The translations under genes were made by a program, and so were the position numbers. A stretch of DNA of 51,684 nt from sequence record SRR31156797_8840. One strand, 5' to 3'. The notes beneath the pieces are model-generated. The model saw only the letters and a program-made list of their open reading frames with translations, had not been told where the DNA came from and searched no databases. The stretch's first letter is position 1; the number at the start of each line of letters is the position of its first letter. Positions 6,034 through 40,752 of the stretch are shown piece by piece.

Positions 6034-6119
6034 GAAGAATCTCATTTTTTGTGTTGTGCGCTGCAAATGTAACACGGTACAAACAATTTAAAACCTTTTG
6101 TGTTAATAGACTTGAAATA

Positions 6120-6749
6120 ATGAATAGATCCTATATGTCGAAGATGATAAATAATTTCCCACTTTTCCCTATTGGCCTGATCGTATTCCCCGGTGAAGTG
6201 CAACCATTGCACATTTTTGAACCGCGGTATATAGAGCTGGTAACCGAAATGGAAGAGTCGGAGGAAATATTTGGAATACCGTTTGTTAATGAAGGAACGA
6301 TTTGCGAATACGGTTCTGGTGTGGTGCTGCATAAAATTTTGGCCAAGAGCCCAACAGGTGAAATGGATATACTTGTCCGCGGTGTCAATCTTTTCAAAAT
6401 CAAATCGATTGAAGAAAAACTACCCGGGAAGCTTTATGGTGGCGGCACTGTAGAGTTCCTCGAAGAAATGAACCTTTCAGTATCACCAACCCTCAACGAG
6501 CTTTTCAGAACGTATAAACAGCAATTGGCTTCGATAAATAAAAATAAAGAAGAACCGCCCCAGGTCATCACGCCAAATCAAATATTGGACATTGCCGGAC
6601 AGTTACCCCTGGAAATTGATGAGAAATATGAAATCCTGAAATCCACAACCCATGAAGTCAGGGAGCAACTCATCGAAGAAAAACTCAACTTTTTGCTGAT
6701 GATCAACAAAAAGCTGGAAGAGGTGGGATATCGTTTCTATCTTAACTGA
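6120..6749 (+). CDS. LON peptidase substrate-binding (Lon-N) domain protein
   Basis: FPLFPIGLIVFPGEVQPLHIFEPRY signature; start uncertain (6120, 6135 or 6144). Confidence 0.85.
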   Translation: MNRSYMSKMINNFPLFPIGLIVFPGEVQPLHIFEPRYIELVTEMEESEEIFGIPFVNEGTICEYGSGVVLHKILAKSPTGEMDILVRGVNLFKIKSIEEKLPGKLYGGGTVEFLEEMNLSVSPTLNELFRTYKQQLASINKNKEEPPQVITPNQILDIAGQLPLEIDEKYEILKSTTHEVREQLIEEKLNFLLMINKKLEEVGYRFYLN

Positions 6750-8380
6750 TCTTCAGCCTCAGCATCCGCAACTTCAAAAATACAGGATATCCGCTCCCCT
6801 TCTCCGGTAAGCCGGTAGAAATTATCTCCCTCAATAAGCAGCGCCTCAGGCACTACATCATCTGTCCTTATGGGGACGTCTATTGCGATAACCTTCCCGT
6901 CGAATAGTGAAATCATACGCTTTACTTCGGTGTGCGCAATGATGATTTTAGATGCTTTGTAATACTTTAAAATATTTGTGACCTGTTTTTCGGTGATACT
7001 TTTGATACCACTAAACCCCTCCAAAATATAACCTCTGTACCATAAAGGCCCTTCAGCATTGAGCAGAATAGAGGTAAGATCGGCGTCCCGCATCGGGGTT
7101 TCCGGATTTACCGACAGGTACTCCCTGATCAGATCATTGATCTTTTCGAGCTTTATACGCTGATTGAGCAGGGTGGGAGAAATTCCGGCATGCGAAAAAA
7201 TGCAATCGTTTATTTTTATAATGGTATTTCGGGTTCTGAGCCAATTTCCCAAAACAGTGTTTGTTCCATAATAATCAGCGGCATCACGCATAAAATAATT
7301 TGAAAATACCTCATATTTCCTGTTCAGGTAGCGGGTGTCGTTAAGCATCACCATAACTTCATGGTTTCCAAGCAGCATATGCACTTTACCTCCTGCTTTC
7401 TGTGCCTTCAGGTCGAGTTGATAGATAAACCACAAACACTCGGTTACCTCATTTCCGCGATCAAAAACATCACCTAAAAATACAACGTGCCCTTTACTCC
7501 ATATCCAGTTTTTATTTACATCAATTACTTTATTGTTTATCAAATAATTAACCAACGCATGGTAATGGCCATGAATATCACCTATGGCGATCACTTTTTC
7601 TACATCTTCAAAAACTGATTTATCAGAAGCAATTTCTTTGGTAATCACATACTCGTTGGTATCATAGGCAAAGCCGCTTACAACAGCGGTATCAGCTACA
7701 ACCGAAACATAATTTTCATTTTTCACCGGGAAGCCCTTCTGCATATCATACTTCATATAAAACATGCGAAATAAGGTATCATTGATCCATTCCATATGCG
7801 GGCCATCTGAGTAGTCGGGCAGGCCAGAATAATAATTTCGCATCTCGATGATTTTTACCAGATAAGCGGCAACATCAGGAAAGTTGGCCATATTGGCATA
7901 GTCGAGTGCTGTAAGGCCATTTTCGTTTGCTATCATAGCATCGGCACCATTTTCGATCAGCATTTTCACACAATCCATCCGGCCGATTTTAGCAGCAACA
8001 ATCAATGCGGTATTTCCTTTTTTAATCCGCTGATTCAAATCGGCACCGTGTTTTATCAGATGATGCATCGACATCAACTGCATTTTTAAAACAGCATGGA
8101 TAAGAGGAGTTCGGTCTTTACTGGGAATGTTTGGATCTGCACCTTCCTCAAGAAGGATTTTCACTGCATCTGGATTATTCTGTTTGATGGCATAATTGAG
8201 CAGGGTAAACCTGCCTTTATCATATTGTTTATCAATATCTTCACCCTGATGAATAAAAGCGATCAACGTCTTGTTATGGTTGGATTTTATGGATTTCAGG
8301 GCTTCCTTTTCAGATATCTGACAAAAAAGCTGCCCCGCAAACCCGGAAAAAAATAATATGACAAAAATGATTCGGTTCAT
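6737..8380 (-). CDS. secreted ankyrin-repeat + Shewanella-like (Shelph) metallophosphoesterase
   Basis: Signal peptide; about 4 ankyrin repeats (TLLNYA, TPLIHA, TALIVA, TALDYA); GDIHG, GDVFDRG, GNHE, HAG, GPLWYRG, IDV motifs. Confidence 0.85.
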   Translation of the reverse strand: MNRIIFVILFFSGFAGQLFCQISEKEALKSIKSNHNKTLIAFIHQGEDIDKQYDKGRFTLLNYAIKQNNPDAVKILLEEGADPNIPSKDRTPLIHAVLKMQLMSMHHLIKHGADLNQRIKKGNTALIVAAKIGRMDCVKMLIENGADAMIANENGLTALDYANMANFPDVAAYLVKIIEMRNYYSGLPDYSDGPHMEWINDTLFRMFYMKYDMQKGFPVKNENYVSVVADTAVVSGFAYDTNEYVITKEIASDKSVFEDVEKVIAIGDIHGHYHALVNYLINNKVIDVNKNWIWSKGHVVFLGDVFDRGNEVTECLWFIYQLDLKAQKAGGKVHMLLGNHEVMVMLNDTRYLNRKYEVFSNYFMRDAADYYGTNTVLGNWLRTRNTIIKINDCIFSHAGISPTLLNQRIKLEKINDLIREYLSVNPETPMRDADLTSILLNAEGPLWYRGYILEGFSGIKSITEKQVTNILKYYKASKIIIAHTEVKRMISLFDGKVIAIDVPIRTDDVVPEALLIEGDNFYRLTGEGERISCIFEVADAEAEDQLR

Positions 8381-8472
8381 GCAACAGATGCTGTAATATT
8401 TTTATCTACAGCTAAAATTGTGTGTTTTAGGTTGTTTAAGCCAATGATGGTTTTAATGTAGTAGTATTATAT

Positions 8473-9534
8473 CTATTGAAATTTTGGTTTTCCCAAACAA
8501 TTTTCCATAAATTCAAGATTTATTAGCCCTTCGTTTTCAATAACTTCGTAAAAGTCATCGTAAAAACTAATAGCATTCTTTCGTTGCCGTTTACGTAAGG
8601 GTTCAAATTCTTCGTACAATTGATAAATTTCCTGTTTTTTCGCCCTAAAAAAATCGAACTGTTCTTCCAATTGTTCCCTGGTTCGGCAATACCCCCGAAA
8701 CAATCGCTGCGAAACCGATTCCAGTTCGAATCGTGGCAATGGCCTGGCATAAACAGTATTGATAACGCCGCACCAATCAAAATCATACGGAATAGCGTAA
8801 GGACGCTTTGAATGTTCGGGAACAAAAAGCTTGATGTTATGCAGAGTAGAAACGGCCCAATCGGTGTTGCCAACAAAATATTGAAACATGGCTAACCTGC
8901 TCATATGCTGAAATTGCGTACTATCCTGCATGAAATATTTTTCTTTGATTTCGTTCAACTCCAGGCGGTCTTCAAGTGCATCATCGGATTCAATAAAAAA
9001 CGCAAAACTTTCCTGTGATTTTTTCCCTGAGGGTTCATCAACATAATTAATGTTAAATGGCCTCACCCTGAAACTTGTATCGGTTAAAAGGTTCAAAACA
9101 CGGTAAACCAAATATTCACTCATTACATATTGCCGATAGACTCTGGAGTTTGGCCTGCAATGCGTTACAAGCTTTACTTTATCCAACCCTTCAAACAAAG
9201 TACCTTCAACCTGTTTCTTCTTAAAATTTAATTTAAGCGGTGGAAAAATACAGTTTTTAGGGTCACGCCTGAAATTCCCACGCGTTTCTACCTTGATATT
9301 AAAAACAAGGGTGTCGGTACCTACAACATATTCCAGGAAGGCCAGGTGCTCACGCCTGTCATCCCCCACATCATCCAGGATGGTTTTAAAATCTCCACGA
9401 AGTGTGATGTTAAGAATCTGGTGATCCCTGAACATTGGCAACGCATTTCCTTGTGAATAATCTTGTGAATACAGGGTATTTCCTAAGAACAGGATGATGA
9501 AAAAAGACAATATGTATGGTCTCAAATGTCTCAT
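8473..9534 (-). CDS. secreted CotH-like (atypical kinase fold) protein
   Basis: Signal peptide; RGNFRR, PPLKLNF, EYLVY, GNTDW...HN, PYDFD in the order of CotH/Fam20-like kinase motifs. Confidence 0.65.
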   Translation of the reverse strand: MRHLRPYILSFFIILFLGNTLYSQDYSQGNALPMFRDHQILNITLRGDFKTILDDVGDDRREHLAFLEYVVGTDTLVFNIKVETRGNFRRDPKNCIFPPLKLNFKKKQVEGTLFEGLDKVKLVTHCRPNSRVYRQYVMSEYLVYRVLNLLTDTSFRVRPFNINYVDEPSGKKSQESFAFFIESDDALEDRLELNEIKEKYFMQDSTQFQHMSRLAMFQYFVGNTDWAVSTLHNIKLFVPEHSKRPYAIPYDFDWCGVINTVYARPLPRFELESVSQRLFRGYCRTREQLEEQFDFFRAKKQEIYQLYEEFEPLRKRQRKNAISFYDDFYEVIENEGLINLEFMENCLGKPKFQ

Positions 9535-9573
9535 AATATGACATCAACAATTGGAAAAGAAGGATGTTAACAT

Positions 9574-10284
9574 TTAGTCGTCTTCCTCCTCATCTTTTTT
9601 AAATGCGAAATTGTCGAGAGTTTCCGCTTCAAAGAAATTCGTAGAATATTTATCCCAAAGATAGTAGATGGTTATTTCGGCCGTATCCCGAAGGAAATTA
9701 ATCTTACCAATCTCCACCCTATTGATTTTCAGTCCTGTTCGTTTTTCAAGATCATCAATGAACTTCTTTTGATTCTGCGGTTTTATCAGGTCGATTTTTT
9801 CGTAAATAATGGTTTTGCTTGACTCATGTTTGTAACTCCAAAAATATTCGATTATGATGGCAATCACAGCAAGCATGACATTCGCAAAAATCAACTCAAC
9901 ATAACTAATGGCCTTGTCCGATAGTGCGTTCAAAACCGAAATACAAATAATCAGGAACAGGTAGGTCATTTCCTTAATAGGGACGGTGCTGGTGCGATAC
10001 CTGATGATGCCAAATAATGCAAACAACCCCAATGCAAACCCCAGTTGAAGGTCGACATTTTGAAGCAGGTATGAAAGGAAAAACACCGAGACACTGATCA
10101 GTGTATAGGTGAAAAGATATTCCTTCCTTCGGTTGTGCGCATAATAAATGTACCTGACGACGACCAGGGTTATGATCAGATTGAGCAGAAATCTGAACCC
10201 CATCATCAGAAAGTCGTTCTGATCAAAGAAATTGATGCCAAAAAGTTTGGGATCAGTGATAAAATGGAGCATAGCCACTGTCAT
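9574..10284 (-). CDS. DUF4956 family membrane protein
   Basis: GFALGLFALFGIIRYRT..IKEMTYLF signature, about 5 TM helices; overlaps the VTC gene. Confidence 0.88.
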   Translation of the reverse strand: MTVAMLHFITDPKLFGINFFDQNDFLMMGFRFLLNLIITLVVVRYIYYAHNRRKEYLFTYTLISVSVFFLSYLLQNVDLQLGFALGLFALFGIIRYRTSTVPIKEMTYLFLIICISVLNALSDKAISYVELIFANVMLAVIAIIIEYFWSYKHESSKTIIYEKIDLIKPQNQKKFIDDLEKRTGLKINRVEIGKINFLRDTAEITIYYLWDKYSTNFFEAETLDNFAFKKDEEEDD

Positions 10285-11092
10285 TATTTATCTTTTTAAG
10301 TTGTAAAAATTTCTGTTTAAAACGGTTGTATTTAATGCCGGGGTTAATCATAACCAGGCCCATACAATATTTGCTGAAATTATTCGGCAAGATATAATTA
10401 TTCCTGAAAATGCGCTCGATGTCCGAAAAACCTGATGTCTTGCTTTGTTTAATCTCAGCAACACTCATCAAAGGCATACCGGCTTGTCTGTCAGTCATAG
10501 TGTAGGAAAGATTCAAATCGAGGGTCACCCTTTCCGGCTTGTTCTTGTGAACCAGTGTAATCCGTTCAAAATTATTATGCAAAGCCGGGTAAAGTATTTG
10601 AGAGCGATAGGGCGTTATTTTTTTAATAAACTTCTTTTCATTTTTACAAAATGCCGCATGCCGGTTTGTAATCCTGATGCGTTTTTTTCGGGTCCGTCCT
10701 TTATTTGATTTGAGCTTGATTTCCAGGAACACATCCCCTGAATTCAAATATTCTCTTTTCCTGACCTTGTACCTGTTCAACTTTTGATTATGATGATCGT
10801 GATACATTGCAAAACCCATGGTATCATAATACATGGAGGCATACGCCATGATTCTTTCATTTTGTATTTCAAGGATCCGGTAATGCCTGCTTGCTGCAGA
10901 TAATACAGTTTGAAGTTTATCAATTGAAAAGGGAAATTTCTTATCAAATCTGTCCATGAGTTTTACCTGATCCATCTCCTCGAGGGAAATGGATTCGAAT
11001 GCCGGTATAACTTCACGAGCCAGATCGACCGCTGAGCTAGGCTCCGGCGTTAGCAAACTTGCTGTATTTCTGTGTGTTTGTTCGCGATTCAT
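10253..11092 (-). CDS. VTC-domain (polyphosphate polymerase, TTM/CYTH fold) protein
   Basis: ISLEEM..VKLM.R.D.KF, YYDT, RYKVRKREY, FLEIKLK, ERVTLD, EIKQ, FSKYC; start taken as ATG 11092, TTG 11116 also possible. Confidence 0.9.
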   Translation of the reverse strand: MNREQTHRNTASLLTPEPSSAVDLAREVIPAFESISLEEMDQVKLMDRFDKKFPFSIDKLQTVLSAASRHYRILEIQNERIMAYASMYYDTMGFAMYHDHHNQKLNRYKVRKREYLNSGDVFLEIKLKSNKGRTRKKRIRITNRHAAFCKNEKKFIKKITPYRSQILYPALHNNFERITLVHKNKPERVTLDLNLSYTMTDRQAGMPLMSVAEIKQSKTSGFSDIERIFRNNYILPNNFSKYCMGLVMINPGIKYNRFKQKFLQLKKINNDSGYAPFYH

Positions 11093-11275: not shown

Positions 11276-11956
11276 CTAAACAGGTGTTTGGTGTGAATAG
11301 AAACTGTGTTTGAGGGGTAGTTTGAAAACCACGGGTTTAAACAGATTTAGGGTCCGGAACAGGAATGGCCGGAAATATCTTTGTATACCTTCTGATACAT
11401 GATCACCAATTATAAAACGATCAACCTGAAATGCTTTATCAGCAAAGCCAATCTTAAAATTAAAACCGGGAATGAAAGGGGCAGAAGCCTGTCGGCTGAA
11501 ACGGCTCTTCAGAATATTTAATCCTGTTTTCGTGATTTGTGGATGCATAGCATTTTCCTCATTGGTAATCACGAGTAATTCCACTTCTTCATCCATCATA
11601 AAAAAATCATCCATAAAAATGAAGAAAGCTTCTGCTGTGGCAAACATGACATCTCTGGTATGATTCATTATTCGGCCAAGACCGGTAGCAGCGTTACCGA
11701 TCAAATATTTTAGGGTTTTCAGGATAAACGCAACCACAACGTTTCTGAACAAAAGTTTGATAATTGTTTTCCAGGGAAATTGATTTGCAATTTTGGTACA
11801 TTTTGCTTTGAAGCTGTTGTGGCCAAAATTCCAATCCAGGCCCAGCCTCTGCTGACCTGCTGAAATCGTGTTTGCCAGGAAATGTGTGCAAGGCTCAAAA
11901 GGTTGCTTCCTGGAAATTCCCATCGTCTTTAGGGTGTTTAACTGTGCATTAATCAT
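11276..11956 (-). CDS. hypothetical protein (226 aa, FMDD motif)
   Basis: Uninterrupted ATG-started ORF filling the gap; opposite-strand frames are short or look like antisense shadows; upstream TATATTTG promoter. Confidence 0.65.
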   Translation of the reverse strand: MINAQLNTLKTMGISRKQPFEPCTHFLANTISAGQQRLGLDWNFGHNSFKAKCTKIANQFPWKTIIKLLFRNVVVAFILKTLKYLIGNAATGLGRIMNHTRDVMFATAEAFFIFMDDFFMMDEEVELLVITNEENAMHPQITKTGLNILKSRFSRQASAPFIPGFNFKIGFADKAFQVDRFIIGDHVSEGIQRYFRPFLFRTLNLFKPVVFKLPLKHSFYSHQTPV

Positions 11957-12203: not shown

Positions 12204-12296
12204 CTTTACGGCTCATATTTGCCACCCGGATCAGTGCAGGGCATCACCTCATTTTTTACAATTGCTTTTTTAACCAGGAAAATACGTTCAGGAATC

Positions 12297-13448
12297 ATGC
12301 TTGCTGAATTCTCATTTTTAAGGCATCCACTCGAAAAAATCTTGCGCTTTGGCCGGCAACTTGTGCCGGGCGTCGATCGTATTGATGCCTTTTTTTATGA
12401 TGAAAAAAGCAAGAGCCTTGTGGCCAGGACGTTGAACAGTGATATGGAGGACCAGCCTTATGGTAAAATTATGGATCTCAATGCAATAAAAGCTGAGGTT
12501 GAAAAACTTCGTAGGAAACGCTCACATTTTGAGTGGTTTACATTTGAAGAATTGCCCTGGAGTGGGTCAAAACATGAAAATGTTAACCGGGATATGCTCC
12601 ATCTGCTGGAGTGTTTCATTTTGATGGTTCCAGTGTCAAGTGCTGAAAAAGAAGGCTACAACGACCTGATCTTTTTCTACTTTAATAAGAACCTGAGCAA
12701 CCTGATGATGACTTCAGATATCACTGTTTCGGTGCATCAAAAAGACCTTGTTGCCAAGGTTTACAAAAATGCCATTTCGGCAATGTTGGCAGCATCACAT
12801 GAAGATCGAGAAGTGTGGGATGATTTTGCGCCGTCATTTTTAAACAACAACCAGACCATCGAAAAATTAAGGACAGAGCTGCACCAAATGCGTAAAATGT
12901 ACCAGGAGCGTTTAATTGCTTCCTGCCACTTTTACCTGGCCAATCTTTCGGTACAATATGGCCGTAATTATGAGTTTACAAAGGATGCTCTTGAACTTAT
13001 CAAAACATACGAAGGTGAATATTTCAGGCTGGAAAATGCCATAAAATCCGGCGTGCGGATCGCCAACAATCTTCACATGTACGATGATCGGGAGGTGATC
13101 AGGATCAGCGAATCCTACCTGAATTTTAATACTTCAAAGCGCATCGAAGAAATCAATGATGCTCACCTGCAAAGTGAACTTGAAAAGCCATTCAATTATT
13201 TAAACACCCTTGAAGAAATTTGCCTCAGGTTACAGGCTGAAAACCGCCCTACTACAGGTAAAAATGTTGCCGAACAAATGGATCCTCCGGTTAAGCCCCC
13301 TTCCATTACGATGTACCTGAACAGCAACCAGCAAAAAATCCTGAAGCTGTTTAGCTTCTATTCGGAGAAATGGAAGATCCTGAGAACGGGTTTTAAACCT
13401 ACCTATAATCTGCTTGAAAATGCCCGAAACCGGCCTCATCGCGTGTAA
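12297..13448 (+). CDS. hypothetical regulator-like protein (possible GAF-like domain, coiled coil, AAA+ lid-like segment, C-terminal HTH-like segment)
   Basis: ATG 12297 preferred over TTG 12219; FTKDALELIKTY..LENAI resembles an EBP lid; TGKNVAEQM..PPSIT resembles an HTH. Confidence 0.6.
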   Translation: MLAEFSFLRHPLEKILRFGRQLVPGVDRIDAFFYDEKSKSLVARTLNSDMEDQPYGKIMDLNAIKAEVEKLRRKRSHFEWFTFEELPWSGSKHENVNRDMLHLLECFILMVPVSSAEKEGYNDLIFFYFNKNLSNLMMTSDITVSVHQKDLVAKVYKNAISAMLAASHEDREVWDDFAPSFLNNNQTIEKLRTELHQMRKMYQERLIASCHFYLANLSVQYGRNYEFTKDALELIKTYEGEYFRLENAIKSGVRIANNLHMYDDREVIRISESYLNFNTSKRIEEINDAHLQSELEKPFNYLNTLEEICLRLQAENRPTTGKNVAEQMDPPVKPPSITMYLNSNQQKILKLFSFYSEKWKILRTGFKPTYNLLENARNRPHRV

Positions 13449-17101: not shown

Positions 17102-17407
17102 TTATTTCGTTCGTTCATTCCAAATTTCGGGATTTCGGCTTGTGTGAAAAATGGCCTCAACTTTAACCGTGGTGGTTTGCTCTAATACCCGAAAATGTAC
17201 AAGGTATGGAAAACTTTTTAATCCCATACACCGGACATCATCATATTTTACAGCAAAATGCAGGGCAGTTGATGAAAGCTTTTCAGTTTGGTCTTTCATA
17301 GCATCAAAAAACCTGTCACCTAAACCAGATTGTTTTTCATTATACCAGTCAACTGCCTGGACGATGTCATTATAGAAATCAGGGTTGTATTCTACACTAA
17401 ATTTCAT
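17102..17407 (-). CDS. RelE/ParE family toxin
   Basis: DI..AV.WY..K..GLG.RF, FPYLVHF, AIFHTSRNP. Confidence 0.88.
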   Translation of the reverse strand: MKFSVEYNPDFYNDIVQAVDWYNEKQSGLGDRFFDAMKDQTEKLSSTALHFAVKYDDVRCMGLKSFPYLVHFRVLEQTTTVKVEAIFHTSRNPEIWNERTK

Positions 17408-17655
17408 TTGCGGGATTCCATTTTTTCTTCGATGTCATTCCATGTCAGATAGCTGTCAGTTTTTTTTTCATATTTTTTAATCCGTTCCCGTACTATTTGT
17501 TTGTGCTCCTCAGGGATTTCAATTTCCTCAATATTTTGCTCTGACCATAAAACTTCACTTAGCTGTTGTTTCTCAGCAGGTGAAAGTTGCTTTACAATAT
17601 CTACTACCTGATTGAAACTAAGTGGTATATTTAATTGAACAAATTGTGTATCCAT
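17404..17655 (-). CDS. addiction-module antitoxin protein
   Basis: LSPAEK..L...LW, IPEEHK..VRER, TW..I; ATGA overlap with the toxin. Confidence 0.85.
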   Translation of the reverse strand: MDTQFVQLNIPLSFNQVVDIVKQLSPAEKQQLSEVLWSEQNIEEIEIPEEHKQIVRERIKKYEKKTDSYLTWNDIEEKMESRK

Positions 17656-24658: not shown

Positions 24659-26005
24659 ATGAAAAAAGCACTCAAAATACTGGCCATCATCATTGCCATT
24701 GTTGCAGGATATTTTCTTGTGCTGCAACTTTACCCGAAAAATGCAGGGCGTTATCCGTTTCTGATCATACTCCTTCTCGGTGATTATTACCTGTGGGCAG
24801 CTTTCAAAGACTGGATTAAAAACAGAAAACCTTTCTTAAAATATTTTTTGGGATTGCTCTACTGGCTGCCGTTTATGCTCCTCCTCGGCACAACCACTAT
24901 CAGCATCAACACACCTCCTGATGCATGGCCTGATGCACTGAGGATTTATATTTTCGGATTCATCTTTATCGCCTATGCTGCCAAGTTGCTGCCGATACTG
25001 TTTTTGGTATTGGCCGATATTTTCAGGGGGTTTCAGTTTATCCATAAAAAAGCAACGGCCATTGCAAAACGTGACACATCAAACCACTCAGGAAGTAAAA
25101 TCACGCGTAGCGAATTTATGAAACGTGCCGGCCTGGTGAGTGGTGGAATCATTTTTAGCGGATTAATGTTGGGTATGCTCAAATGGGTCTTCGACTTTAA
25201 ACTGCACCGGCATGTTGTTAAAATTCCCGGCCTACCCAATTCTTTTCAAAATTTAAAGATAATCCAGATTTCTGATATCCACCTGGGAAGCTGGTCGTCC
25301 AAAACCGCCCTGCAGGAAGCTGTAGACCGGATCAATGGCCTGAATCCCGACATGATATTTTTTACCGGCGACCTGGTAAATAACAAAACCGATGAGGCCT
25401 ACCCTTTTGAAAAGATTCTCGCAAACCTCCGGGCGAAAAACGGCGTATTCGCAACCCTCGGCAATCATGACTACGGCGATTATGTGAGGTGGCCATCAAA
25501 ACAGGCCAAAGCAAAAAACATGACTGATCTTTATGATCTGTACCGCCGCATGGGCTGGAAACTGCTGAACAACGAAAATGAGGTTTTTGAAAACCCCGAT
25601 GGTAAGTTAGCCGTTTTGGGCGTAGAGAATTGGGGCGACTTTGGCCGGTTCCCGAAATATGGTGACCTGCAAAAAGCAACCCGGGGAGCTGAAGATGCCG
25701 ATGTAAAACTGCTTTTATCGCATGATCCATCACACTGGGACAAGGTTGTAACAAAAGATTTTCAGGATATCGACATCACTTTTGCCGGGCATACCCACGG
25801 TTTTCAGTTTGGCATCGAAATCAAAAATATCAAATGGAGTCCGGCACAATATGCTTACAAGCACTGGGCCGGCATGTATGCAAATATTTCGGGCAACCAA
25901 ACCCCACAGCGACTTTATGTAAACCGTGGCCTGGGAACTATTGGCTATCCCGGACGGGTTGGGATACTGCCGGAGATTACACTGATAGAATTAAAAAAGG
26001 CATAA
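24659..26005 (+). CDS. membrane-bound metallophosphoesterase (YkuE-like)
   Basis: N-terminal TMs; SDIH, TGDLVN, LGNHD, SHDP, GHTHG, VNRGLG. Confidence 0.9.
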   Translation: MKKALKILAIIIAIVAGYFLVLQLYPKNAGRYPFLIILLLGDYYLWAAFKDWIKNRKPFLKYFLGLLYWLPFMLLLGTTTISINTPPDAWPDALRIYIFGFIFIAYAAKLLPILFLVLADIFRGFQFIHKKATAIAKRDTSNHSGSKITRSEFMKRAGLVSGGIIFSGLMLGMLKWVFDFKLHRHVVKIPGLPNSFQNLKIIQISDIHLGSWSSKTALQEAVDRINGLNPDMIFFTGDLVNNKTDEAYPFEKILANLRAKNGVFATLGNHDYGDYVRWPSKQAKAKNMTDLYDLYRRMGWKLLNNENEVFENPDGKLAVLGVENWGDFGRFPKYGDLQKATRGAEDADVKLLLSHDPSHWDKVVTKDFQDIDITFAGHTHGFQFGIEIKNIKWSPAQYAYKHWAGMYANISGNQTPQRLYVNRGLGTIGYPGRVGILPEITLIELKKA

Positions 26006-39319: not shown

Positions 39320-39949
39320 TTACTTCCTTAAAAATGACAGGAAAATAAGAGACTTCTCTGAACTAACCGGTATCTCATCTTCTTCGAGTTGTTGCAAGCC
39401 ATTCGATGTAAGGGTTTCATGAATCAATTGCTTATCCACAGCGTGGGACACTCCTGAAAGCGCTTTTAGCGACTTATAAGGTGAAGAAGAAACAAATGCA
39501 GCTCCGTAATTTTTTTGGATTGCCAACGCAAGCACTCCGCCATGATTCAGGGCTTTAACCATTTTCAGAAGTACAATTGCCGGATCGACATATTCGAGCA
39601 ATAATCCGGTAAAAATCAGATCGACAGATTCAGAGCACCAGTTATAGTTTTGTATATCAGCTTGCAGCAATTCAAGACCCGGTATTTTTTGTTGGTATCT
39701 CGATCCGGCAATTTTAAGGTATTCAGGATTTACATCCATAGCAATCACCCTTTGTGTAATGCGATTATCTACATGTTCTAATCCATTCCCTGTGGAACAT
39801 CCCGGCAACCCAAAAATGGCTGGTTGATGTTTTTTGAGAACGTATCCAATAAGTTCGTTCAGCACCTGTAATTGCCCTACCTGTGCCATGTGTTTTTCAT
39901 AATCACAGGCTGGTATTTCGAGCCATGGATTAACCATAATTAATATCAA
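39320..39949 (-). CDS. class I SAM-dependent methyltransferase
   Basis: NPWLEIP..DYE.HM, GC.TGNG, DVNPEY, EYVD. Confidence 0.8.
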   Translation of the reverse strand: MILIMVNPWLEIPACDYEKHMAQVGQLQVLNELIGYVLKKHQPAIFGLPGCSTGNGLEHVDNRITQRVIAMDVNPEYLKIAGSRYQQKIPGLELLQADIQNYNWCSESVDLIFTGLLLEYVDPAIVLLKMVKALNHGGVLALAIQKNYGAAFVSSSPYKSLKALSGVSHAVDKQLIHETLTSNGLQQLEEDEIPVSSEKSLIFLSFLRK

Positions 39950-40752
39950 TATTTTTCCGGGACAAATGTCTGCTCATCCATAGGAGGACGAACATAACCC
40001 TTTGCATCAGGGCGTTCAGGCAGTTCAAAAGGTTCTGGCGTGAGGTCCTTATACGGTATCATGCTGAGGAGGTGATTGATACAATTCAGCCTGGCCTTTT
40101 TTTTGTCATCTGATGGCACAACATACCATGGCGATACTTTGGTATCGGTGTAAGCAAACATTTCATCCTTGGCGCGTGAATATTCAACCCATTTTTGACG
40201 TGATTGTACGTCCATGGGGCTGAGCTTCCAGCGTTTGGTGGGATCATTTATCCGGGCCTGGAAGCGGCGTTCCTGCTCTTCAACACTTACCGAAAACCAG
40301 TATTTGATCAGGATAATACCAGAGCGGATAAGCATTCTTTCGAAGTTTGGGCACGACCTGAGAAACTCCCAGTATTCATCGTCGGTACAAAACCCCATTA
40401 CGCGTTCAACACCGGCACGGTTATACCAGCTTCGATCGAGCAAAACCATTTCGCCTGCAGCGGGCAAATGAGGAGCATATCTTTGAAAATACCATTGCGT
40501 TTTTTCGCGTTCGGTAGGTGTACCTAAGGCCACTACCCTGCATATTCTGGGATTCAGGCTTTGGATAATTCGCTTAATGGTTCCACCTTTTCCTGCTGCA
40601 TCCCGCCCTTCAAAAATTACTACTACTTTGAGGCCTTTATGCTTAATCCATTCCTGAAGCTTTACGAGTTCGATTTGCATGTTACGAAGTTCACTTTCGT
40701 AAAAATCGTTGGATAATTTCTTTTTTCCGTTTTTTTTATTGTTGTTACCCAT
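39946..40752 (-). CDS. ppk2: polyphosphate kinase 2
   Basis: FEGRDAAGKGG, WYFQRY, DRSWYNRAGVERVMGF, WKLSP.D. Confidence 0.95.
   Translation of the reverse strand: MGNNNKKNGKKKLSNDFYESELRNMQIELVKLQEWIKHKGLKVVVIFEGRDAAGKGGTIKRIIQSLNPRICRVVALGTPTEREKTQWYFQRYAPHLPAAGEMVLLDRSWYNRAGVERVMGFCTDDEYWEFLRSCPNFERMLIRSGIILIKYWFSVSVEEQERRFQARINDPTKRWKLSPMDVQSRQKWVEYSRAKDEMFAYTDTKVSPWYVVPSDDKKKARLNCINHLLSMIPYKDLTPEPFELPERPDAKGYVRPPMDEQTFVPEKY

Follow-up and report, generated by a model that had tools for sequence, protein, structure and literature searches.

Positions 6737–11092 of a 51,684-nucleotide (nt) stretch of DNA (sequence record SRR31156797_8840; the whole stretch is called the window below) hold four minus-strand open reading frames (ORFs), encoding in order a VTC-domain protein, a DUF4956 membrane protein, a 353-residue protein that is likely an exported kinase, and a protein that joins ankyrin repeats to a Metallophos domain. 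The VTC and DUF4956 genes overlap by 32 nt, and gaps of 39 nt and 92 nt separate DUF4956 from the kinase gene and the kinase gene from that of the phosphatase, an arrangement of co-oriented, closely spaced genes that had been given in a preliminary description of the window and is confirmed here. Our conclusion is that this four-gene circuit is one version of a module whose hub is the kinase together with DUF4956, and in which VTC is replaceable rather than core. We read the window version, with a probability of roughly 0.45, as an exported, cognate pair of enzymes that writes and erases phosphate on an envelope target, the donor reaching the kinase via DUF4956 and VTC supplying polyphosphate (polyP) in this lineage. 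That reading is built on gene order, protein families, fold and catalytic residues, and on linkage, across phyla, that ties the kinase to DUF4956, PPP phosphatases and two unrelated polyP polymerases.

A likely exported kinase with a CotH-like fold

The 353-residue protein has 1217 homologues, almost all of them unnamed. A Pfam scan of the window protein gave no match to the CotH family PF08757 (weak matches occur in 6 of 83 family members, best E 4.5e-5), and nothing was found in the PDB by sequence, with single or profile searches, or in NCBIfam. The label 'CotH-like', used in the preliminary description, is nevertheless borne out by predicted structure. An AF2 model (pLDDT 91.9) matched Bacillus cereus CotH (5jd9) in Foldseek with an E of 2.9e-8 and a TM of 0.56, and B. 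cereus CotH is its best structural match, at Z 19.4 and an rmsd of 3.3 over 267 residues, the next family reaching Z 12.8. The kinase fold on which the original proposal depended is thus present in the model.

In a set of 211 family proteins, E140, E182 and D251 occur in every one, and N233 is retained in 210, D225 in 208 and K121 in 198, while R85 and R89 are nearly invariant. Matched by motif, the loop NTDW...LHN...PYDFD resembles the B. cereus CotH loop NFDG...VHN...PWDYD; passages of a study of B. subtilis CotH describe the loop aspartates as catalytic and assign D228 and D251 to the catalytic Asp/metal-binding Asn/Asp site (PMC7821199).

Two cysteines, C95 (210 of 211) and C126 (211 of 211), are conserved, and C283 co-varies with a C-terminal Cys, both being present in 164 of 209 kinases and neither in 36, with 9 discordant. 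These pairs suggest disulfides and an oxidising compartment. Export signals were judged by eye and with a hydropathy test, a heuristic, rather than on the basis of SignalP; by this measure 200 of 208 kinases and 28 of 28 phosphatases have a hydrophobic stretch at the N-terminus, compared with 5 of 46 VTC controls. Secretion of both enzymes, as previously proposed, therefore stands as a prediction. The Pfam scan of the kinase gave no type IX sorting domain, and for that reason the periplasm is its likely site. Taken together, fold and residues place the 353-residue protein, as a likely exported kinase, in an unnamed family that lies outside PF08757 and is CotH-like by predicted fold. The kinase gene is broken into two ORFs in two loci, L063 and L073.

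The ankyrin-phosphatase as likely partner of the kinase

We compared occurrence in 301 Bacteroidales genomes with G001 as centre, of which 45 have the kinase and 41 the phosphatase. Both are found in 34 genomes, the kinase only in 11, the phosphatase only in 7 and neither in 249, which places the phosphatase in 34 of 45 kinase-bearing genomes and in 7 of the 256 others. The surroundings of 65 of the 70 Bacteroidales kinase matches were fetched (five short fragments were left out), both sides being visible in 59 of the 65. The phosphatase is immediately adjacent in 23 of these 65 copies, in both gene orders and also in convergent and divergent layouts, and on a FastTree phylogeny of 86 kinases the phosphatase-neighbour label changes 11 times, at least 7 changes being forced by starred branches. 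In 101 gammaproteobacterial genomes from the order of the Woeseiaceae record G307 (two genomes with a C-terminal-only match were dropped), a related phosphatase occurs in 24 of 31 kinase genomes and 21 of 70 others, and lies within 3 kb of the kinase in 16 of the 31. A mirror-tree comparison of 28 kinase–phosphatase pairs gave a rho of 0.38 (0 of 2000 shuffles), a signal that is expected from shared descent and that we discounted as co-evolution. The pair is also present in the cultured Ancylomarina salipaludis (L023). We conclude that the ankyrin-phosphatase is likely the cognate partner of the kinase in Bacteroidales and in one gammaproteobacterial order.

Among solved structures, the phosphatase domain is closest to Shewanella PPI (1v73, E 4.4e-67), and the Shelph placement rests on this match rather than on a tree with reference Shelphs. 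The protein carries GDIHG, GDVFDRG, GNHE and HAG, with the three PPP signature motifs at 267, 303 and 338, and these three are invariant in all 28 phosphatases fetched. Judged by the definitions of the PPP signature and of the bacterial-type (I/L/V)D(S/T)G motif in passages of PMC535813, the fourth motif is altered: it reads IDVP, retains the Asp, has lost the Gly and is variable across the 28 copies. For this reason we name the phosphatase Shelph-like and do not place it in the Shelph subgroup. Ankyrin repeats are present in 22 of the 28 fetched phosphatases and absent from 6. Gammaproteobacterial relatives bear an extra C-terminal kinase-like domain (HipA_2, a weak match at E 0.0043).

Some loci depart from the simple pair. 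Two kinase paralogues stand either side of a single phosphatase gene in L079, L091 and L095, and an HD + PycTM gene lies divergently upstream of the pair in L013, L014, L024, L071 and L075. In L250 and L222, phosphatase relatives with a C-terminal HipA/PI4K-like kinase domain (L250:3108-4964, L222:2948-4795) are divergent from the kinase, beyond which lie an unnamed 320-residue gene, an SdiA-like gene and DUF4956.

The kinase and DUF4956 form the hub

The closest relatives of the window are Lentimicrobiaceae or Bacteroidales records. The four-gene order is conserved in L001, L003, L004, L009 and L061, and because it recurs in these loci we do not regard it as chance; L002 stops after the third gene. 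In a quick tree, the window's DUF4956 belongs to a clade of 13 members (SH-aLRT 97) in which the kinase is next to DUF4956 in all, the ankyrin-phosphatase follows the kinase in 12, and VTC is upstream in 7 and not in 6. A second clade (L092, L099) has all four gene types, with the phosphatase convergent and without ankyrins, so that the four types have been united in two separate kinase + DUF4956 clades.

VTC and DUF4956 track each other across the Bacteroidales set, with both in 140 genomes and a single one in 5 and 12. Next to the kinase the picture is a different one, DUF4956 being adjacent in 16 of the 65 copies and VTC lying within two genes in 4. Of the 12 genomes that have DUF4956 and gave no VTC match, seven bear the kinase, which adjoins DUF4956 in 5; in three genomes (G433, G456 and G508) the sole DUF4956 match is the one beside the kinase. 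Five genomes, all drafts, with DUF4956 beside the kinase gave no VTC match and have PPK1 elsewhere, and no VTC match was obtained in G125 and G250. We also looked at 40 DUF4956 loci selected for lying apart from the kinase. There DUF4956 is most often accompanied by a DUF2490 barrel (24 members) and by secreted Cthe_2159 or true CotH proteins, and no ankyrin-phosphatase was seen. The hub of the module is thus the kinase with DUF4956, and since the phosphatase does not track VTC and VTC is rarely near the kinase, the four-gene circuit is one version of a module centred on that hub. The same genomes hold a second, distant VTC–DUF4956 subfamily with an unnamed 362-residue partner (L115, L116 and L117).

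What stands in for VTC

Kinase loci from more distant lineages were examined for 20 of 39 Gemmatimonadota matches, the best 80 of 516 metagenome matches and 30 short gammaproteobacterial loci, with Pfam checks made on subsets. Within 2.2 kb of the kinase, 12 of the 20 Gemmatimonadota loci have DUF4956 and 6 have a CYTH-PPK1 fusion, and none has VTC. The best 80 metagenome loci have DUF4956 in 22, CYTH-PPK1 in 24, the phosphatase in 9 and VTC in 1, and the 30 gammaproteobacterial loci have DUF4956 in 9 and the phosphatase in 7. PPK1, a polyP polymerase unrelated to VTC, therefore fills the VTC slot in other lineages, and because an unrelated enzyme takes the same slot the polyP link is supported; this is the strongest evidence for it. 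The polyP circuit of the preliminary description thereby gains backing for its polyP link and loses VTC, near so few kinase copies, as its core.

A further arrangement is found in P0121-P0125 and L276:1-2526, where the kinase follows, in one fused protein, an MFS domain that scores weakly as TLC (ATP/ADP carrier); the fusions have one additional hydrophobic segment. Such fusions number 5 among 5111 long candidates and 1 in 30 loci, and DUF4956 was not found in G454, which has one. With three candidates scored per genome, likely an undercount, a carrier domain was detected in 5 of the 45 Bacteroidales genomes that have the kinase, and none was detected in the closest relatives, G001, G085 and G003. 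We infer from these patterns that DUF4956 with a polyP enzyme, and a nucleotide carrier, are alternative donor supplies.

Three candidates in these loci were rejected. An apparent kinase-CYTH-PPK1 single ORF in L226 is a different-frame artefact, P0126 was discarded as an apparent join across a frameshift, and what had seemed a pst operon beside some kinase copies gave, in Pfam, beta-lactamase fold and 2-oxoacid dehydrogenase genes instead.

Predicted properties of the VTC and DUF4956 proteins

The VTC family profile matches Vtc4 (3g3q) at E 1.4e-7 and aligns R48, K52, R111 and R113 with Vtc4 R196, K200, R264 and R266; all four are invariant in 46 of 46 members, as are E213 and K241. The latter two lie outside the stretch aligned to Vtc4 and are candidate counterparts of its metal ligand E426 and of K458. 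By Pfam and hydropathy the protein has no hydrophobic segment and no SPX or Vtc1-type membrane domain. We predict that it is a cytoplasmic polyP polymerase, and an optional member of the module; R264, R266 and E426 of Vtc4 are catalytic according to passages of PMC9911596.

The DUF4956 protein scores 176 bits in Pfam against a cut-off of 30.6, and its R95 and R97 are invariant. Its AF2 model (pLDDT 81.6) has five helices and a C-terminal beta-alpha-alpha-beta-beta (alpha/beta) domain. Hydropathy and loop charge, by which the loops on the putative cytoplasmic side are basic, point to a likely N-out/C-in topology. Fold searches gave no clear PDB relative, just weak ACT/KH-type rows and generic bundles, a result that excludes no family; passages of a study of Streptococcus intermedius label a DUF4956-type protein MgtC-like with an ACT-like domain (PMC12345266).

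A proposed mechanism and its alternatives

The periplasm is held to lack ATP. In the mechanism that we favour, VTC, as a predicted polyP polymerase, would supply the phosphoryl donor in the window lineage, and DUF4956 may pass or gate that donor from the cytoplasm to the exported kinase. The kinase and the ankyrin-phosphatase, both likely exported to the periplasm and, like VTC, presumed active, would add and remove phosphate on an envelope target, probably a protein, to which the ankyrin repeats might direct the phosphatase. As donor, polyP is slightly favoured over ATP, at about 55:45. A bolder version would make this a widespread periplasmic cycle, with the kinase drawing polyP through DUF4956, fed by VTC or by CYTH-tethered PPK1, in place of ATP, the cognate phosphatase reversing the mark, and some lineages using a fused ATP carrier instead; we consider so general a scheme doubtful.

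A number of observations weigh against the write-and-erase reading. Profile–profile comparison (hhalign) of the kinase family with five canonical CotH proteins gave a probability of 0.1, so that residues were matched to CotH by motif and fold and not by sequence alignment. Among the kinase neighbours we saw no conserved gene that might encode the substrate, and 35 of the 65 Bacteroidales kinase copies have no phosphatase, DUF4956 or VTC beside them. The phosphatase, expected to co-occur with the VTC genes in relatives, does not track VTC: the two occur independently in Bacteroidales (p 0.31), and 12 of the 34 genomes with kinase and phosphatase, drafts among them, gave no VTC match. The claim of a cognate phosphatase, good in Bacteroidales and in the G307 order, fails in Gemmatimonadota (101 genomes), where a single Bacteroidales query found the phosphatase in 2 of 32 kinase genomes (p 1.0). 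Because the genomes are related, all such p-values exaggerate independence. The fold searches revealed no resemblance between DUF4956 and a channel of known structure. Lastly, small-molecule phosphatases recur as kinase neighbours, namely a PafA-like phosphodiesterase gene (5 of 20 Gemmatimonadota loci), PhoA and SdiA/phytase-like genes, and such company fits phosphate turnover as well as signalling.

Those neighbours are one reason to consider that the locus serves periplasmic turnover of polyP or phosphate esters and not signalling, with the phosphatase a polyphosphatase or scavenger and the kinase modifying a small molecule or glycan. Parts of the literature point the same way: yeast VTC is paired with Ppn2, a bacterial-like PPP enzyme cleaving polyP in the vacuole lumen (passages of PMC8220851), PPP specificity is unpredictable from sequence (passages of PMC535813), and an S. 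intermedius CotH mutant has reduced Pel polysaccharide (passages of PMC12345266). We nonetheless judge turnover unlikely. The phosphatase tracks the kinase and not the polymerase, most fetched copies carry ankyrin repeats, and the gammaproteobacterial relatives are fused, on the weak HipA_2 match, to a second kinase-like domain; moreover, Shewanella PPI, the solved structure nearest to the phosphatase, is specific for tyrosine as a protein phosphatase, in the passages of PMC535813, whereas Ppn2 is ApaH-like. A different possibility keeps the pair and changes its fuel, which would be exported ATP, as in every characterised CotH, with VTC a passenger or an ATP/polyP buffer accompanying DUF4956. 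B. subtilis CotH uses ATP (passages of PMC7821199), VTC is missing from 6 of the 13 loci of the window DUF4956 clade, and the carrier fusions argue that ATP can be the donor. However, the fusions are rare, the carrier domain is seen in few kinase-bearing Bacteroidales (even allowing for an undercount) and in none of the three closest relatives, and ATP alone leaves the linkage to two unrelated polyP polymerases unexplained, so we think this quite improbable.

We give very little credence to the notion that VTC–DUF4956 and kinase–phosphatase are unrelated modules, functionally unlinked, that a single rearrangement brought together and one clade then inherited. It is true that most of the 140 genomes with VTC and DUF4956 have no kinase, that the usual third gene of VTC–DUF4956, in the 40 loci above, is the DUF2490 barrel, and that the exact four-gene order was observed among close relatives only. 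Against a single accidental join, though, kinase–DUF4956 linkage is found across three phyla, with either gene coming first, and the kinase tree shows 7 changes; both the sole DUF4956 matches beside the kinase and the kinase-bearing genomes that have DUF4956 but no VTC argue for a partnership of its own.

Surroundings of the module

The features of the locus and of the rest of the window are collected in Table 1. The co-oriented 226-residue ORF, unmentioned in the preliminary description, sits between the module and the divergent conserved gene. It is 46% identical to its positional counterpart in L001, with a dN/dS against L001 of 0.46, compared with 0.03-0.09 for VTC, DUF4956 and the divergent gene. 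ORFs of 231-308 residues occupy its position in L002, L005, L006 and L061; BLAST from the window ORF left the positional ORFs of relatives undetected where tried, and Pfam and the Atlas gave no usable match to it. A promoter scan of the window returned 16 matches against 17.8 expected, which is chance level, and a hairpin resembling a terminator at 6716-6686 (minus strand) belongs to a set of 10 where 5.8 would be expected, too weak a signal to serve as evidence. No pel-type genes were recognised by Pfam among the adjacent genes scanned. Two short overlapping ORFs of 83 and 101 residues at 17102-17655 (minus strand) resemble a toxin–antitoxin pair of the RelE/ParE type.

Table 1. Positions of the module genes and of other features of the window.
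Feature	Position	Strand	Remarks
VTC-domain protein	10253..11092	-	From ATG; longest ORF from TTG 11116; PF09359 E 3e-23
DUF4956 membrane protein	9574..10284	-	PF16316 E 6.5e-52
353-residue likely exported CotH-fold kinase	8473..9534	-	Fold and catalytic residues; Pfam scan negative
547-residue likely exported ankyrin-repeat PPP phosphatase, Shelph-like	6737..8380	-	Ank and Metallophos (Pfam)
Fast-evolving 226-residue ORF, possible first gene of the unit	11276..11956	-	183 nt upstream of VTC start
Divergent 409-residue gene, family unclear	12219-13448	+	Flanks module in several relatives
Convergent LON-substrate-binding-domain gene	6051-6749	+	13-nt overlap with phosphatase; flanks module in several relatives
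PPK2 polyphosphate kinase, elsewhere in window	39946-40752	-	
Second metallophosphoesterase, elsewhere in window	24659-26005	+	

Relation to known systems

An accessory trio of cotH, poly-phosphate polymerase and DUF4956 is named at Gram-positive pel loci in passages of 10.1101/768473. The window shares with it an adjacent VTC-type polymerase, DUF4956 protein and likely secreted CotH-fold kinase, a grouping described without a biochemical function. It differs in that the kinase is a single-domain protein outside PF08757 and is followed by a likely exported PPP phosphatase, and in its diderm host; the passages of 10.1101/768473 and PMC12345266 name no cognate phosphatase. In S. intermedius (SIR_1592-1594), aggregation in sputum medium drops by >50% when the DUF4956-type gene or CotH is deleted; for deletion of the polymerase the passages of PMC12345266 report no comparable drop. 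These phenotypes parallel the genomic ranking found here, with DUF4956 and the kinase above the polymerase.

Bacillus CotH (5jd9/5jda) has the same fold and the same catalytic-loop pattern, N-x-D...H-N...P-x-D-x-D, as the window kinase, which is 12-14% identical to it, has a signal peptide (by the hydropathy heuristic) and cysteine pairs, and is found outside the spore context. The yeast VTC complex (Vtc4/Vtc3/Vtc1) with luminal Ppn2 likewise combines a tunnel domain, whose K200, R264 and R266 have equivalents here, with a partner in the membrane and a hydrolase of the PPP family on its far side; unlike it, the window VTC has no SPX or Vtc1-type membrane domain, and DUF4956 gave no structural match to VTC subunits in the fold searches. 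Yeast VTC is not known to have a luminal kinase partner. From Shewanella PPI and the Shelphs the window phosphatase, with its three PPP signature motifs intact, differs in its N-terminal ankyrin repeats, its IDVP motif and its genetic linkage to an exported kinase. NTT/TLC carriers are related through the carrier-like domain fused to members of the kinase family in a few bacteria, although none is encoded at the window locus. In passages of PMC5381601, free-living bacteria are described as having NTT carriers whose presence is unexplained, with fusions to HEAT, cNBD, methyltransferase and oxygenase domains and none to a kinase.

Our literature search, which left most subscription journals outside, found no description of the kinase family, of the four-gene module or of a kinase–Shelph pair. 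The VTC–DUF4956–CotH trio is already published; what is new is the ankyrin-phosphatase as likely cognate partner, together with the evidence for VTC as a replaceable part. In passages of PMC7821199, no phosphatase is known for the spore coat, and where CotH obtains its ATP and whether its phosphorylation can be reversed are named as open questions. The kinase family described here consists of small single-domain enzymes in which three putative donor supplies (VTC, PPK1 and a nucleotide carrier) can be compared as they occur in nature, and by this the question of the donor becomes directly assayable. DUF4956, for its part, gains a testable role that is independent of VTC.

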